Position numbers: made by a program. A stretch of 16,128 bases of DNA, taken from positions 1 to 16,128 of the forward strand of contig JAHHIK010000150.1 in NCBI GenBank assembly GCA_019358935.1, written 5' to 3'. Source of the stretch: Tolypothrix carrinoi HA7290-LM1 (GTDB lineage: Bacteria > Cyanobacteriota > Cyanobacteriia > Cyanobacteriales > Nostocaceae). Shown in pieces: positions 3,001 through 15,000 of the stretch (position 1 is its first letter; every line of letters starts with the position of its first letter).

Positions 3001-6000
3001 AGGAGCAATCAAACTAGCTCGATATTACACCGGACGTTCTTCAATTGTGGCATTTTTGGGCGCATTTCACGGACGCACTTATGGAGCGATGTCTTTAACT
3101 GCTTCTAAAACTGTGCAAAGAGCAAACTTTGGTGCTTTGCTTCCGGGAGTAACACACATTCCTTACGGTACTCACGCCAGTGTGGATTATTTAGAGAAAG
3201 AATTATTTTTAACTATATTACCACCAAATGAGGTGGCGTCAATAGTAGTTGAAGCAATTCAAGGTGAAGGTGGTTACATTGTACCTGAAGATGGATTTTT
3301 GCAGAGAATTCGCGATATATGCGATCGCTACGGCATTCTGATGATAGTCGATGAAGTGCAATCGGGGATGGGACGCACCGGTCGGATGTTTGCCATTGAA
3401 CATTGGGGTGTAATGCCGGATATCATAACTACAGCAAAAGGTATCGCTAGCGGTTTACCTTTGGGTGCAATTCTCTCACGTCCAGAAATTATGACTTGGC
3501 AACCTGGTTCTCACGCTACCACATTTGGGGGCAATCCGGTTGCTTGTGCGGCAGGAATTGTCACTTTGCAACTGCTGGAGAACGGTTTGATGGAAAACGC
3601 CGTTAATATGGGAGAATTATTGCAAGCTGGTCTTACTCGGTTGCATGAAAGATTTCCGAGAATGTCTTTACCACGGGGTAAAGGTTTGATGGTAGCGGTA
3701 GATTTATTAGATGAAGAGCAAAGTTTGGATAGAGAATTGCGCGATCGCATTCTTCAAGAAGCTTTCTTACGTGGTTTATTATTACTTGGTTGCGGTAAAG
3801 CCGCAATTCGATTTTGTCCGCCTTTAGTTATCGACAGCGAACAAATTAAAATAGCTTTAGATATTATTGCTGATGTGTTAGTTGAAATGCTTTAAGTTTC
3901 GCGCCAAAATGCAAACACTTTCTTAAACTAAGTACAGCTTTGCGTAAAATCGTGGCGAATTGAGGGTTAAAATTTAAACGCAGAGGAGCGCAGAGGTAAG
4001 CGCAAAGGTACGCAAAGAATACGAGCGCAAATTAAGTTTGGCAATAGGATACATTTAAAAACGCTACGCTTTTACGTAAAACTGTACTTAGCCTGTTAGC
4101 GTAAAATTATTCCAACCTTGACTTATGAAACCGGAAATTACCCGCAACCTTTGGGAATTGCTTTGGCAAGAATACAGCGCTAGAGTAAGTTATGCCCGCA
4201 CATACGAGCAAATGATAACTGCCGCTGGTGGTAGTATTGCTAATGACCATATTGCTTTTCGGTCTTTGCGTACAACTGTGGATAGTCCGCACGGTAAGAT
4301 TAACTTGGGGATTGACTACTTGGGGCAATTAGCGGAAGCTTTAGGTTACGAAGCTGTGGGGGAGTACACTTTTAGTGAAACTCATCTTTATGCACGTCAC
4401 TATCGCCATCCACAGCAAGAAGAATTAGACTTACCCAAGTTGTTTATTAGCGAGTTGGTTGTGGATGAATTGCCAGAAGCGATCGCTCAACTCATCCAGC
4501 AAACAATAGCCGGCGACAATTTACTTAATTACTCAGCAATTCTTAATGCATTTGACTCGGATGCACAACGCCTTGTCAAACAATTGCAAAAAATCTTTAC
4601 CCGTCCTTGGCAACCTCCCAAACATTCGATTGTGGAAAAAGTTAACGCTGTTACCCAATATGGAGCTTGGGTATTATTACACGGTTACGCTGTTAACCAT
4701 TTTACAGGATATGTTAACCGCCAAAATACGCCAGAATACCCAGATATAGATACTACCGCTCGTGGTTTGGCTAAATTGGGCGTACCAATGAAAGCTAAAA
4801 TTGAGGGGGATATTGCCACCGGTTTGCGTCAAACCGCTACAGAAGCAGTTACGGAAACAATTCCTGTATTAGATAATATAACCAACGCCGAAATTCAAAT
4901 TCCCTGGACTTACGCTTATTATGAAATTGCCCAGCGTTACATGGTAGAAGTGGAACCGGGTAAGCAAAAGCTTTTTGACGCTTTTTTAGGAAAGAATGCC
5001 CAACAATTGTTTGAAATGACTAGATTAGGGACTGGGGAAAAGTAAAAGTTAAGAGTTGGGCATTGGTAATTGGTAATTGGTAATTGGTAATCGGCACGCT
5101 CGCATTTATCCCCCTTGTCCTCCTTGTCCTCCTTGTCCCCATTCCCCATTCCCCTCTTTTTTACAGGAGCGATCGCGGTGACTGTTGAAATTGACCAGCT
5201 TATAGCAGATTGGAAGAAGAAAGTCAATATTGCAGGTCAAAATCTCCTCGAACTTCAAGAACTACCAACTTATCAGCGACTTTGCGGTGGTTTTGGTTTC
5301 CCTCCAGTCAAGTTGACAGGAATCACTCAAACGCGGGTGACACCAGCACTAGAAGCGATGAACGATTTGTTTCAACACTTCGACTTGTTGGTGCAAACCG
5401 TTGATAAAGCAATCAAGCTACGACAGCAGTTACCGCGTTTTTTGTCAACACAAAAAATTAGCGAAATTGCACAACTTTTAACAGGTGCTTCAATTGAGTT
5501 ACCTGGGGTGCAAACACCGCTAGCACAAAGAGAACTTTTGACTGGTGCAGAAACGACAAATAAAATCACTCCCGCACAGCTACTTGAAGTGATGCAAAAT
5601 GCTTTCTCTGTAGCTAGGGATGCAGTTTTAGCGGTTGACGACGCTTGGACACATTTGGATGTGATGCTGGCAGATGCAGAAGCGCAAATTTTTTCCTTGC
5701 AAAATTTAGCTATATCGGTGAATCAAGATTGCCAAAGTGAATTAATTCAAGCTGCGAGTGCGTTAGCGAAGCTCGCCGAAGGCATCGCTTCTTTACGGCG
5801 AAGTATAGAACAAGACCCTCTAGGAACGAGTGCGGTCTTTCAACAACATGTCCAGCCGATGTTAGCTCAGGTAAAAGCGACTTTAGAAGATTATATCAGA
5901 CAACAAAATCAAATTCGCGAAAAATTAGCGATCGCTCACAATTTGTTACAGCAATTAAAAGAAATTCACGTCAAAGCGATCGCAACTTTTGCGGAATGTC

Positions 6001-12000: not shown

Positions 12001-15000
12001 GTGGGGTGAAAATTCTCGGTGTAGGTGAAGCGATCGCCTCACCTGTACCACAAAACATAACTCTCGAAACTTGCCCAGCTTGCAGCGTTCAGCGCGAACT
12101 TAACAGCGGCGACTTTTGCGAAATTTGCGGTTACAACTTCGTCACCCTAGTTCATGGGGAAGTGCCCATTGTTGAGGGGATGAGGGGACAGGGGGGACAG
12201 GGGGGACAGGGGGGACAGGGGGGACAAGGGGGACAAGGGGGACAAGGGGGACAAGGGAGACAAGAGGACAAAGGTGAATTTGCTTCGTTGTCTTCCCCCT
12301 CCTCCGTGTCTCCCCATCCCCCCCTCTCCCCCTCTCCCCCTCCCCCCATCCCCCTCACCTGGGAACTTGTTGTCACAATCGATCCATCCCTACGGCATCC
12401 AGAAAGCCCAGAAGCGCCAACAAATCAACAGGCTATTGCATTTCGCCTAAACAAGTCAAATAACCTCATCGGTCGTAATAGCCAAGCTAGAGGAATTGAA
12501 CCAGAAATTGCTTTGGATTTTGACAATGCTGTTTCCCACCGTCACGCTTTGTTAAACCTTCAGTCAGACGGTTCTTTAACTCTGCGCGATATTAATTCTT
12601 CTAACGGGACTAAGCTTAACGGAGTGGAATTGAAGCCAATGGTGGATGCACCTCTACAAGATGGAGACGAATTTACTTTAGGACACTGGACTCGAATTGC
12701 TGTCAAAGTTATCCACCAATCTTTATAAGTTTCGTGGATTAAATAAAATGCAAAACTTTTATTTTGTCGGGTGCATTATTCATAACTACGAGACTCTTTT
12801 CTTTTGTAGGGTGCGTTATGCATAACGCAACGCCAGTTGCTACAACGTTCGTGACCTCACGAGCGGGTTCGCCACTTCGACGGGACCCAAACCGACACCG
12901 CGCCCGTGGACTCACCGCAACGCACTGGCTCCCCTACGGGACTCAAATTGCTGTCAAAGTTACCCACCAATCTTTATAAAGATAAAAAATATGAGTAAGA
13001 TAATCTCAGCCTCAAGTAAAGCAATTAAAAAACTCAATACTCCACAACTGCTTCAAGGTGGCTTGTACTTAACTTGGGCTACAAGTTTACTAGTATTAGT
13101 TTCTACTATTAGCGGCATCCAAGGACAACGGCACGCTATTAACACAATCGGTAAAGATGCAACACCGAGTATTACTACTGCCCAACGTCTCAAAGATGCA
13201 GCAGCGGGTATGGATGCCTACATTGCTAAAGAACTGCTATTACCATCTGGACAAAACCAAGATGCTGTTAAGGGTTACGAGGAGCGATACGAGAAACTAA
13301 CTCAAAGACTGGTTGCTGCTGCGGAAAGTATCAGCTACGGAGATAAAGAGCGAAAACCTATCGAAACTTTGCAACTAGAATTAGGTAACTACATCGCCAA
13401 GATTCAGCAGGCGCGTGATTTTCACGAACGCGGTGATACTAATAATATGCTGGTTGCTTATCGAAGTGCTGCGGAAATTATGGATGAGAAATTATTACCA
13501 GCAACCGACGCACTGGATAAGGTGAATGTAGACGCTTTAAATGTTACATACAATAAGGAAAAATTTGACTCTGGGAAATCGCTATTTTTTATAGTGATTT
13601 CTGGTGTTGCACTAATCAGCGTATTAGTAGGGTTACAAATATTTCTCAGTCAGAGGACTCGTCGCACCTTCAATCCTATGCTGTTGGCAGCGAGTGCGAT
13701 CGCTATTGCTTTTTTAAATTACACAACAGGTGCGTTTCTTTCTGCTTCCCAAAATCTCAGAATTGCTAAAGAAGATGCTTTCACTTCTATGCACGCATTG
13801 CGACAAGCCCGCGCTTTAGGTTACATCGCCAATGCCGCTCAAAGTCGCTATTTGTTTGATTCGGCTTTTGCTTTGAATCACGAACAGGCTTTTTTTAATA
13901 CTATAGCTAAAATTGCCAAACCGCCTGATGGTGACACTTTTGAAACAGTCGCAGCATCAGCATCAGCATCAGGCTACAAACCGAATAATTTCACAGGCTT
14001 GTTAGCTGACCAACTAAAAAATATTACCTTTGCTGGCGAACGAGAAGCAACAGTAAAAAACTTGACAACTTTAGGCGCTTATGTTGCTATTGATAAACAG
14101 ATTCGCCAACTCGAACGCAGTGGAAAACATACTGAAGCGATCGCACTTTGTTTAGGTAGTCAACCAGGACAATCTAATTGGGCATTTGATGAATTCAGAT
14201 TGAAAGCTAATCAAAAAACTTTTGATATTAACCAAGCAGCCTTCGACAAAGCAATTAAGCAAGGCTTTAAAGATGTGGATGGTTTTGAGTTTACCACCCC
14301 AGTAGCGCTGAGTGCGATCGCTCTTTTAACTTTATTTGGATTGCTCCCACGCTTGAAAGAGTATGCTTAATACCAAATATATAATTCATTAGTTGTAATT
14401 CCAATTGTTCACCCTATCTGGTGATGTCGCTCAAAACTGCTGAACGATATCTTAAAAGTACCAGGAGTGATTGAACTCTGGAGAATGCAATTATGAAAAA
14501 AATTATTTCCGCTAGTTTAGTAGTTTTGGCTGCTACTACTGGTTTTTTACTCAACAATCAGCCTGTTCAAGCTCATCGACGTTACAATTATGGTGGGTAT
14601 CCCTACTACCATCGCTATCGTTATCGTATAGAGCCAATAAGATACTGCTTTCCTACAACTCAATGGCTGGTTGACGAAGACCCCGCTTATCACCCTCAAG
14701 CTTACTCCGACGGCTACCGCCAAGGACAGACGAGCGCTAAAAAAGGTCAAAAGTACAAACCGCGTACTGCTGGGGGCGAATTTGCTCGCGGTTTCGATGA
14801 TGGTTATTACGGAAAGCAATTTGCCGGTCAAAAAAACATTGTTCCAAACGTTATTAAACCATACACTACAACAGAATGTAGTTTGTATTGATTTCGTAGT
14901 GAGGACTGAAGTCCTCTCATATAAGAACTGAAGTCCTTACTACGATATTAAATTGAAATATCTGGAGTTTTGTTAACCTGTGCTTTCTTCTCAATTACCG

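Follow-up and report, generated by a model that had tools for sequence, protein, structure and literature searches.

A PknG gene cluster with a GlnX-family sensor and no linked GlnH in Tolypothrix carrinoi, and its relation to the long PknG operon of Actinomycetota

The closest described signalling route is the GlnH-GlnX-PknG-GarA/OdhI pathway of Mycobacterium and Corynebacterium, which according to passages of PMC6069109, PMC9769921 and PMC8546545 is activated by extracellular aspartate or glutamate and includes a full-length PknG with rubredoxin and TPR domains and a GlnX with four membrane helices and two four-helix bundles. The parts of PMC9769921 consulted leave open both the mode in which GlnX activates PknG and the ligand binding of GlnX itself, and in the consulted parts of PMC8546545 a PknG homologue is recorded in Calothrix and Ktedonobacter only. 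A second related system is the ArnA-ArnB switch of Sulfolobus acidocaldarius, described in passages of PMC6509490 and PMC12852372 as a zinc finger-linker-FHA protein partnered with a tripartite vWA protein that has an intact MIDAS and C-terminal threonines, which is controlled by kinase and phosphatase and represses motility genes. In Deinococcus radiodurans the abstract of bioRxiv 10.64898/2026.01.23.701218 places the same vWA, kinase, FHA and PP2C types in one operon (DRA0331-0334), where FHA opposes a PP2C carrying a KI-FHA domain; it names no GlnX or helical gene, and D. radiodurans, used as a control genome, gave no VWA_3_C match. Neither a long PknG operon nor a GlnH-free GlnX was found described in the literature searches, while Fig. 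2B of PMC6069109 and Fig. S7 of PMC8546545 may show gene neighbourhoods.

The locus studied here lies in the window, i.e., the whole analysed stretch of 16,128 nucleotides of Tolypothrix carrinoi HA7290-LM1 (contig JAHHIK010000150.1). The seven plus-strand open reading frames proposed by the first-pass annotation, with PknG_rubred/Pkinase/PknG_TPR, GNAT, DZR-PP2C, VWA plus VWA_3_C, FHA and GlnX assignments, were recovered at the proposed span (Table 1). They are separated by gaps of 4-262 bp, and their shared orientation and conservation point to co-transcription. Promoter and terminator scans remained at or below the level of shuffled sequence (25 against 21.0 and 7 against 13.6, respectively). 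Contigs from one soil RNA run (small share of words) are about 93% similar to pknG, to parts of the vWA gene and to the FHA-glnX junction; they represent a related strain, possibly its DNA, and lend no support to a single transcript.

Table 1. Coordinates of genes and sequence features of the PknG-GlnX locus, counted along the window
Feature	Position	Strand	Properties and evidence
Helical protein, no known family	5178..6398	+	406 aa, GTG start; EzrA/spectrin-like three-helix repeats
PknG-type Ser/Thr kinase	6620..8797	+	extra N-terminal zinc ribbon, Ser/Thr-rich linker, rubredoxin, kinase, TPR (Pfam)
GNAT acetyltransferase, accessory insertion	8921..9487	+	PF13302
Double zinc ribbon + PP2C phosphatase	9492..10421	+	Pfam, NCBIfam
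Tripartite vWA protein, ArnB-like, MIDAS intact	10600..11883	+	VWA + VWA_3_C; profile match to 4FX5
vWA C-terminal tail, residues 413-422; T414 and T419 candidate PknG phosphosites	11836..11865	+	conservation
Double zinc ribbon + FHA protein, ArnA-like, not GarA/OdhI-like	11928..12728	+	
GlnX-family membrane sensor	12991..14370	+	four membrane helices, two periplasmic four-helix bundles; NF058618
GlnX loop 1, residues 113-120	13327..13350	+	degenerate copy of GlnH-free signature in this genome
GlnX loop 2, residues 344-350	14020..14040	+	N-I-T-F-x-G-E intact, GlnH-free subfamily signature

The kinase matches PknG structure 2PZI over residues 79-725 (E 5e-141), and K177, D269, K271, N274 and D286 together with eight cysteines are kept in at least 95% of 61 sequences, so the catalytic residues are intact as in the mycobacterial pathway. 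The sensor scores 281 bits with NF058618 (cut-off 250) and shares with its mycobacterial and corynebacterial counterparts the conserved cytoplasmic residues R225, R454 (139/141 each) and Y458 (138/141); it gives no match at E 0.01 to the mycobacterial equivalog NF041460, with which even Streptomyces GlnX reaches 173 against a cut-off of 780. The locus further differs from the three-gene pathway in four extra genes, in the additional zinc ribbon of PknG and in lacking GlnH, GarA/OdhI and the E1 component of 2-oxoglutarate dehydrogenase. In the whole genome, which is 99.65% complete, the best OdhI score is 41 bits against a cut-off of 200 and TIGR00239 finds no E1. Because a PknG is encoded while neither its known substrate nor its known target was found, some other output of the pathway must exist; judged by sequence, the module does not act on 2-oxoglutarate dehydrogenase through GarA/OdhI.

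The neighbouring vWA and FHA proteins resemble the ArnB-ArnA pair. The vWA protein matches 4FX5, which has the ArnB-type three-part fold (passages of PMC6509490), along residues 5-423 (E 2.5e-103), while its sequence match to ArnB itself is limited to the vWA core (E 1.8e-13). The MIDAS residues D51, S53, S55, T120 and D148 are conserved, as is the C-terminal tail (T419 in 87/87, S416 in 86/87, R421 in 85/87 and T414 in 75/87), and the tail pattern recurs in 40 of 42 vWA reading frames of metagenome loci. The FHA-protein profile aligns to ArnA structure 5A8I across both zinc finger and FHA (E 4e-8), with G182, R183, S203, H206, N226 and G227 invariant in 25 sequences, but reaches only 23 bits with the OdhI model (cut-off 200). 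The PP2C residues D71, D99, D258 and D300 are kept in at least 95% of 77 sequences. Unlike the archaeal switch, the cyanobacterial set is bacterial and has its own kinase, PP2C and membrane sensor encoded alongside, and there is neither evidence for motility control nor an identified output gene.

The first gene product matches no Pfam or NCBIfam family. Its GTG start is preceded by AGGAG, and its AlphaFold model is confident (pLDDT 93.7); neither it nor GlnX has a Foldseek match at E 0.001. EzrA is the top fold match (Z 13.0, rmsd 4.5, 192 aligned residues), which is noise level for helical bundles, and residues 150-406 fall in the Atlas EzrA cluster with 0.90. A homologue is encoded in 39 of 51 actinobacterial loci, and the protein is probably a scaffold, a role only weakly inferred.

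The cluster had been presented as a conserved six-gene operon of cyanobacteria, a wording that needs narrowing in two respects. All six genes stand together in 12 of 27 cyanobacterial loci, many of which are cut by contig ends, and pieces are missing or unlinked in some: G162 has no PP2C gene between pknG and the vWA gene, and in G474 and G594 over 1 Mb separates glnX from the vWA gene. Occurrence across distant cyanobacterial families was confirmed, but the distribution is patchy, with VWA_3_C found in 19 of 301 genomes from the order and a full-length GlnX in 7 of 401 from the phylum. Moreover, the set of kinase, PP2C, vWA, FHA and helical protein is the standard long form in many Actinomycetota; the suspicion that a similar operon exists there proved right, as 36 of 51 actinobacterial loci hold all six genes, each of them with a GlnH-type solute-binding protein (SBP) in addition. 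This seven-gene operon of Streptomyces, Streptosporangiales and other Actinomycetota thus shares its six core genes with the cyanobacterial one, which lacks the SBP gene and whose GlnX keeps N-I-T-[YF] loops. The named loci were picked by vWA, 80 being kept of at least 497 relatives. The accessory GNAT gene is found at 2 of the 27 cyanobacterial loci and is absent from all 51 actinobacterial ones. Of the 27 cyanobacterial loci only 1 has the upstream aminotransferase and HGLS genes, and a link to amino-acid catabolism was rejected because of this.

TerY-P systems combine a TerY-type vWA protein, a PP2C and a kinase and have a defence function. Triads of vWA, PP2C and kinase are held by conflict neighbourhoods in passages of PMC7159879, and the patchy occurrence with signs of inter-phylum transfer would also suit a TerY-P-like conflict or anti-phage system. 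Nevertheless, such a role seems highly improbable here: the kinase is a full-length PknG homologue, no effector gene was found, gene composition is fixed across phyla, and PADLOC returned generic kinase and phosphatase matches alone, with none for the other six proteins tested, including vWA.

The absence of a linked GlnH, which had been claimed for the GlnX-PknG module, was borne out. Among GlnX loci with at least 1.5 kb of downstream sequence an SBP gene accompanies 39 of 40 from actinobacteria but 0 of 18 from cyanobacteria, 0 of 4 from Acidobacteriota and 0 of 1 from G094, a member of another Cyanobacteriota class; the GlnH-free form thus also occurs in these groups, as well as on GC-rich metagenome contigs. 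Of 80 metagenome loci picked by motif, 40 of which extend at least 1.5 kb past glnX, none contained an SBP. No conserved gene takes the place of GlnH downstream of cyanobacterial glnX, and a secreted 132-aa reading frame found there recurs in a same-genus genome alone. The long PknG operon itself is common, and the new part is its GlnH-free branch.

An unlinked GlnH had been left as a possibility by the first-pass annotation. The window contains no SBP, and the four SBP_bac_3 matches of the genome sit on other contigs; among them is a stand-alone 274-aa protein on contig C2 with no transporter genes beside it. GlnX could borrow this orphan, or an SBP of another family: the best fold match of GlnX, LytS-N (Z 17.8), is an SBP-docking bundle, glnX is retained even when unlinked from the module and so partners can act from a distance, and the two actinobacterial SBP groups have a median identity of 31%, which implies that GlnX has paired with different SBPs. 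Stand-alone SBP_bac_3 proteins of about 275 aa are also near-universal in cyanobacteria, similar proteins being the top match in most of 46 genomes. But they score no higher where the module is present (the GlnH profile gives 108-142 bits in the 23 genomes with the module and 119-139 in the 23 without it). The orphan is 21-29% identical to operon SBPs and falls outside their clades, and no operon-type GlnH was found in module-bearing genomes; in G094 (87% complete) the sole SBP match is a 519-aa frame. Because GlnH-free GlnX also carries its own conserved residue set, a borrowed binding protein is regarded as unlikely.

A periplasmic N-I-T-[YF]-x-x-E loop occurs in 0 of 39 SBP-linked GlnX sequences and in 15 of 20 cyanobacterial, 3 of 3 acidobacterial and 2 of 2 G094 sequences, as well as in both stand-alone actinobacterial plasmid copies. 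As the motif was set post hoc, after data inspection, and was used to select the metagenome loci, these serve as a test in one direction only. Exceptions are L110, which lacks both an SBP and the motif, and G038, L055 and L057, which have a degenerate loop 2 and no SBP. Fusions of motif-type GlnX were also seen, with GlnX following a Ser/Thr kinase in two cases and a vWA fragment in one. The periplasmic loops are more constrained in GlnH-free than in SBP-linked GlnX. The contrast between the two forms rests on two SBP-linked clades. The conserved signature suggests a membrane sensor that detects its signal by itself.

Structural comparison is consistent with such direct sensing. The predicted GlnX structure (pLDDT 96.7) has four hydrophobic segments, and bundle 1 matches, after LytS-N, McpS (Z 16.2) and MCP2201 (Z 16.0); the latter is also the best PDB profile match (E 0.024). 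MCP2201 of Comamonas testosteroni is a chemoreceptor, unlike GlnX, and Y138 is a ligand residue of its directly ligand-binding bundle (passages of PMC10735184). It shares with GlnX the four-helix-bundle fold at about 11% identity, and by hand count Y138 aligns with GlnX Y364, a helix-3 tyrosine that is the one pocket residue mapped; Y364 is kept in 24 of 24 GlnH-free sequences and also in 30% of Streptomyces-type SBP-linked ones. The N-I-T loop aligns to the helix 2-3 turn of MCP2201, and since this turn is not among the listed ligand contacts the loop may merely cap a helix.

Alternatively, GlnH-free GlnX could sense envelope or ion stress (membrane damage, K+, Na+) within a Psp-like response. 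Of the 62 metagenome loci that extend far enough, 12 have a PspA/IM30 gene after glnX, as do L050 and L082; PspA and an AAA ATPase lie upstream of the operon in L200, stand-alone glnX copies lie near KdpA (L146), KdpD with a Na/H exchanger (L038) and an APC permease (L037), and the likeness of the helical protein to EzrA was counted in the same direction. However, the PspA link looks confined to one subclade, the cyanobacterial loci inspected have no PspA after glnX, the PspA subfamily of the metagenome loci has no match in this genome, and the GlnX bundles resemble those of small-molecule sensors. A stress-sensing role therefore appears improbable.

The trees bear on how the GlnH-free form arose. 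In unrooted GlnX trees the SBP-linked sequences as a single clade were rejected (p-AU 7.6e-5, motif columns dropped), and one SBP-linked clade is nested among GlnH-free relatives; GlnH may therefore have been added to GlnX systems rather than lost from them. Cyanobacterial and acidobacterial proteins are nested in the vWA tree and sister in the GlnX tree. That cyanobacteria received an actinobacterial operon, lost GlnH and now keep a blind or decaying sensor has a very slender chance. The gene order of the cluster is that of Nonomuraea, Actinomadura, Spirillospora and Actinoallomurus (Streptosporangiales), and in some cyanobacteria it is broken up or incomplete, but a quick vWA tree puts the cyanobacterial proteins outside the actinobacterial clade and does not support the Streptosporangiales origin hinted by gene order. 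Neither the vWA nor the GlnX trees show uptake followed by loss of GlnH. Against decay, catalytic residues are intact, the loops are constrained as described above, and GlnX and vWA are present or absent together in all 32 genomes compared (GlnX in 18 of 18 VWA_3_C-positive, 0 of 14 negative).

The preferred reading, held tentatively and somewhat short of even, is a self-contained phospho-switch with a membrane sensor that needs no solute-binding protein. The four-helix bundles of GlnX would bind the signal directly, most likely a small carboxylate or amino acid, and, following the literature model of the family, its invariant cytoplasmic loop and C-terminal tail would touch the TPR domain and turn the kinase on. 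A predicted GlnX-PknG TPR complex gives weak support, with a score of 0.55 (best of three controls 0.00), 100% contact agreement between runs and partner pLDDT of at least 83; 116 of 157 solved pairs reach the mark applied, as do 2 of 215 mismatched ones, but 18 of those solved pairs and both mismatches do so at scores of 0.60 or lower. Given the tail invariance and the ArnB precedent, PknG may then phosphorylate the vWA tail threonines, which the zinc-ribbon FHA protein, loosely docked on vWA, would clamp by analogy with ArnA/ArnB; PP2C would by the same analogy reset the tail, with the helical protein possibly holding the parts together.

On a broader and more doubtful view, for which the chances are clearly poorer than even, GlnX by origin is a stand-alone, sometimes fused, ligand-binding Ser/Thr kinase receptor that drives an old ArnA/ArnB-like switch in several phyla; actinobacteria would have gained an SBP at least twice and relaxed the receptor loops, and the three-gene operon of Mycobacterium and Corynebacterium would be a reduced and rewired descendant. 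If this origin is true, the cyanobacterial operon would be the simplest system for study of the GlnX ligand and of PknG activation. Both of the open GlnX questions can be put to the test in harmless organisms with the help of this natural GlnH-free subfamily, its named signature residues, the kinase-GlnX fusions and the candidate substrate site.

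The gene set that the first-pass annotation had proposed around a GlnX-family membrane sensor and a PknG Ser/Thr kinase is present as seven co-oriented ORFs with the claimed domains, six of which form the helical-PknG-PP2C-vWA-FHA-GlnX module (located features are collected in the table). Kinase residues 79-725 match PDB 2PZI (E 5e-141), and sequence alignments show conservation of catalytic and metal-binding residues in kinase, phosphatase, MIDAS, and FHA alike. The module seems very improbable as a conflict system, and about equally so as a decaying import. The helical protein, whose closest named relative (94% identity) comes from Hassallia, has a confident predicted fold with EzrA as its best structural likeness (Z 13.0, rmsd 4.5, 192 aligned; Atlas 0.90), a borderline match that appears to be of the level usual for helical bundles. 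The GNAT gene was found in 2 of 27 cyanobacterial loci and is an accessory insertion, not a core gene.

Features of the window and of compared loci (L), with coordinates where available
Feature	Location	Description
Gene cluster	5178..14370	seven ORFs, one shared orientation
Helical protein		406 aa; no family match
PknG		725 aa; PknG_rubred and PknG_TPR domains
GNAT	between PknG and PP2C genes	accessory gene
PP2C phosphatase		zinc-ribbon
vWA protein		carries VWA_3_C
FHA protein		zinc-ribbon
GlnX		459 aa; membrane protein above cut-off of GlnX family model NF058618
Class III aminotransferase, HGLS-family dioxygenase	2591-5045	upstream of cluster; retained in same-genus genome only; the aminotransferase also inside 7/51 actinobacterial loci
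Tyr/Arg-rich protein	14493-14891	132 aa; signal-peptide-like start; no family match; 71% identity in genome G284
miaE ORF	14980-15492	stops at 170 aa vs 199-position Pfam model; still shorter (99 aa) in G284
Tandem repeat	1734-1956	21-bp unit, 10.6 copies, 92% matches
Short 7-9 bp tandem repeats	5062-5138, 6397-6596, 11881-11940, 12176-12356	occupy spacers; lengthen FHA linker in frame
Orphan SBP_bac_3	G000:C2:49468-50319 (L005:1342-2166)	another Tolypothrix contig; 274 aa; no transporter genes beside
Acidimicrobiales locus	L110:2967-4238	cyanobacterial order; neither SBP nor motif; sole exception of 40 actinobacterial loci
Tandem glnX	L188:9974-12870	glnX twice
PspA/IM30 directly after glnX	L050:13398-14225	also L082, L128-L131, L133, L134, L144, L151, L156, L159, L171, L176
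PspA and AAA ATPase	L200:1195-3623	immediately before operon
Operon-less glnX	L146:4-2249	near KdpA and MpsC
Operon-less glnX	L038:13297-17684	near KdpD and Na/H exchanger
Operon-less glnX	L037:13874-15280	near APC permease
Operon-less glnX	L192	near Usp and MgtC genes

VWA_3_C was detected in 19 of 301 sampled genomes of the order and full-length GlnX in 7 of 401 genomes of the phylum, while in hand-chosen genomes, where kin are not independent, GlnX accompanied VWA_3_C in 18/18 positive and 0/14 negative cases. The proposed conserved six-gene operon in cyanobacteria holds as a recurring gene set but not as a rigid arrangement: of the 27 cyanobacterial loci, many of them cut by contig ends, 12 show all six genes, PP2C is absent from its usual place in genome G162, and in G474 and G594 glnX and the vWA gene are more than 1 Mb apart. 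Two full-length GlnX copies are present in G480. In G094, a genome from another class of Cyanobacteriota, two GlnX loci (L043, L044) have the permuted order vWA-FHA-GlnX-helical(-PknG-PP2C) without SBP, and this order recurs in L170, L172, L180, and L194.

The six-gene set is not peculiar to cyanobacteria. Of 497 relatives listed when named genomes were scanned by vWA, 80 were retained, and these together with 8 other loci were annotated with profiles built in this analysis. A Nonomuraea record has the identical gene order followed by an SBP_bac_3-type gene; among the matches listed, 36 of 51 actinobacterial loci contain all six genes, and SBP is present in 36/36 of these. The order is GlnX-SBP-helical-PknG-PP2C-vWA-FHA in the Streptomyces type and helical-PknG-PP2C-vWA-FHA-GlnX-SBP in Streptosporangiales; the similar Streptomyces operons suspected earlier exist as a seven-gene form including SBP. 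Named sources of representative proteins include Armatimonadota and Bryobacteraceae. Available passages describe a three-gene operon conserved in Actinobacteria (PMC6069109) and PknG homologues that stand alone in Ktedonobacter and in Calothrix (PMC8546545), and those of PMC9769921 do not mention cyanobacteria; in the literature searched, subscription papers, figures, and supplements aside, neither the long operon nor a GlnH-free GlnX subfamily was found described.

The absence of GlnH, the amino-acid-binding SBP which feeds GlnX in actinobacteria, is real and wider than first described. When counting was restricted to loci with at least 1.5 kb of sequence past glnX, SBP was found in 39/40 actinobacterial versus 0/18 cyanobacterial, 0/4 acidobacterial, and 0/1 G094 loci, and no conserved replacement gene 3' of cyanobacterial glnX was found in the loci inspected. 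A GlnH partner encoded elsewhere had been left open, and an unlinked SBP serving GlnX is an unlikely reading, for which a near-universal orphan SBP is available as candidate: proteins like the 274-aa orphan occur in most cyanobacterial genomes tested. The four SBP_bac_3 proteins of the Tolypothrix genome share 20-32% identity with the SBPs of the operons, whose clades do not include them; with a profile built from 37 operon SBPs, best scores were 108-142 bits in 23 module-bearing versus 119-139 bits in 23 module-free genomes, and from this similarity it follows that there is no module-specific GlnH orthologue.

The predicted GlnX model (pLDDT 96.7) comprises four membrane helices and two four-helix bundles, the first of which resembles LytS-N (Z 17.8, rmsd 1.5, 120 aligned), McpS (Z 16.2), and MCP2201 (Z 16.0). 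In each bundle of GlnH-free GlnX the loop between helices 2 and 3 carries N-I-T-[YF]-x-x-E. The strict motif was absent from SBP-linked GlnX (0/39) versus 15/20 cyanobacterial, 3/3 acidobacterial, and 2/2 G094 sequences. Among full-length best-hit representatives 128 of 141 have it, as do the two stand-alone copies on actinobacterial plasmids. None of 80 motif-picked metagenome loci (38-72% GC) contained SBP (0/40 with at least 1.5 kb downstream), a set which tests only the direction from motif to SBP with a motif defined post hoc. By sequence, this loop evidently marks a GlnH-free GlnX subfamily, the exceptions being L110 without SBP and motif and G038, L055, and L057 with degenerate loop 2; in the window's GlnX loop 1 is degenerate and loop 2 intact. 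Motif-type GlnX also stands behind a Ser/Thr kinase (two) or a vWA fragment (one) in P0218, P0251, and P0169, and such fusions are possibly one-piece receptor kinases.

Direct ligand binding by GlnX was raised as a possibility in the available text of PMC9769921. The motif loop aligns with the corresponding turn of MCP2201 (E 0.024) and may be structural, since this turn is absent from the ligand contacts listed in the accessible part of PMC10735184. By manual alignment count the MCP2201 ligand residue Y138 corresponds to GlnX Y364, a tyrosine shared by 24/24 GlnH-free sequences, by 7% of those from Streptosporangiales, and by 30% of those of the Streptomyces type. Sensing of envelope or ion stress by GlnX, a doubtful alternative, is suggested by PspA after glnX in 12/62 metagenome loci and by Kdp genes near stand-alone glnX copies.

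In the unrooted 44-row GlnX tree, calculated with motif columns removed, the SBP-linked Streptosporangiales clade (support 100/100) is joined (98/96) to the pair of plasmid copies that stand alone and bear the motif, and this group lies within the motif-bearing side, apart from Streptomyces-type GlnX (100/100). Monophyly of SBP-linked GlnX was rejected (p-AU 7.6e-5, the grouping having been seen before the test), the two actinobacterial operon-SBP groups have a median identity of 31%, and the two nearest-branching Streptosporangiales-type loci (L064, L079) retain a half-decayed loop 2. In an unrooted quick vWA tree, a split with support 99 separates every one of the 51 actinobacterial rows from cyanobacteria and Acidobacteriota. 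Gain of GlnH rather than loss is favoured by these sequences, short of demonstration because both trees are unrooted.

In the likeliest reading, held tentatively at somewhat below even chances, GlnX would bind a small molecule itself and activate PknG through its TPR, and PknG would flip a vWA/FHA switch that PP2C would reset. GlnX cytoplasmic residues are near-invariant in all groups, and the complex predicted for GlnX and PknG residues 428-725 (contacts in full agreement, partner pLDDT at least 83) hints at contact with a score of 0.55 against 0.00 for the best control; the mark used was reached by 116/157 solved and 2/215 mismatched pairs, and its range up to 0.60, where 0.55 lies, accounts for both of these mismatches and for 18 of the solved pairs. 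Across its length the vWA protein matches 4FX5, a three-part fold as in the ArnB paralogue vWA2 according to the passages available (PMC6509490), and the FHA profile aligned with ArnA across zinc finger and FHA. In the ArnA-ArnB pair, as described in part of PMC12852372, the zinc finger docks loosely and FHA binds phosphothreonines of the C-terminal bundle; the vWA tail conserves T419 in 87/87, S416 in 86/87, and R421 in 85/87 sequences, and its pattern recurs in 40/42 further ORFs. In the Tolypothrix genome (99.65% complete) there was no match to 2-oxoglutarate dehydrogenase E1 and no OdhI above cut-off, and therefore the known PknG output is unavailable there. Compared with the known GlnX-PknG pathway, the cyanobacterial module lacks GlnH and GarA/OdhI, but it would operate in the manner of that pathway with an ArnA/ArnB-type switch joined on.
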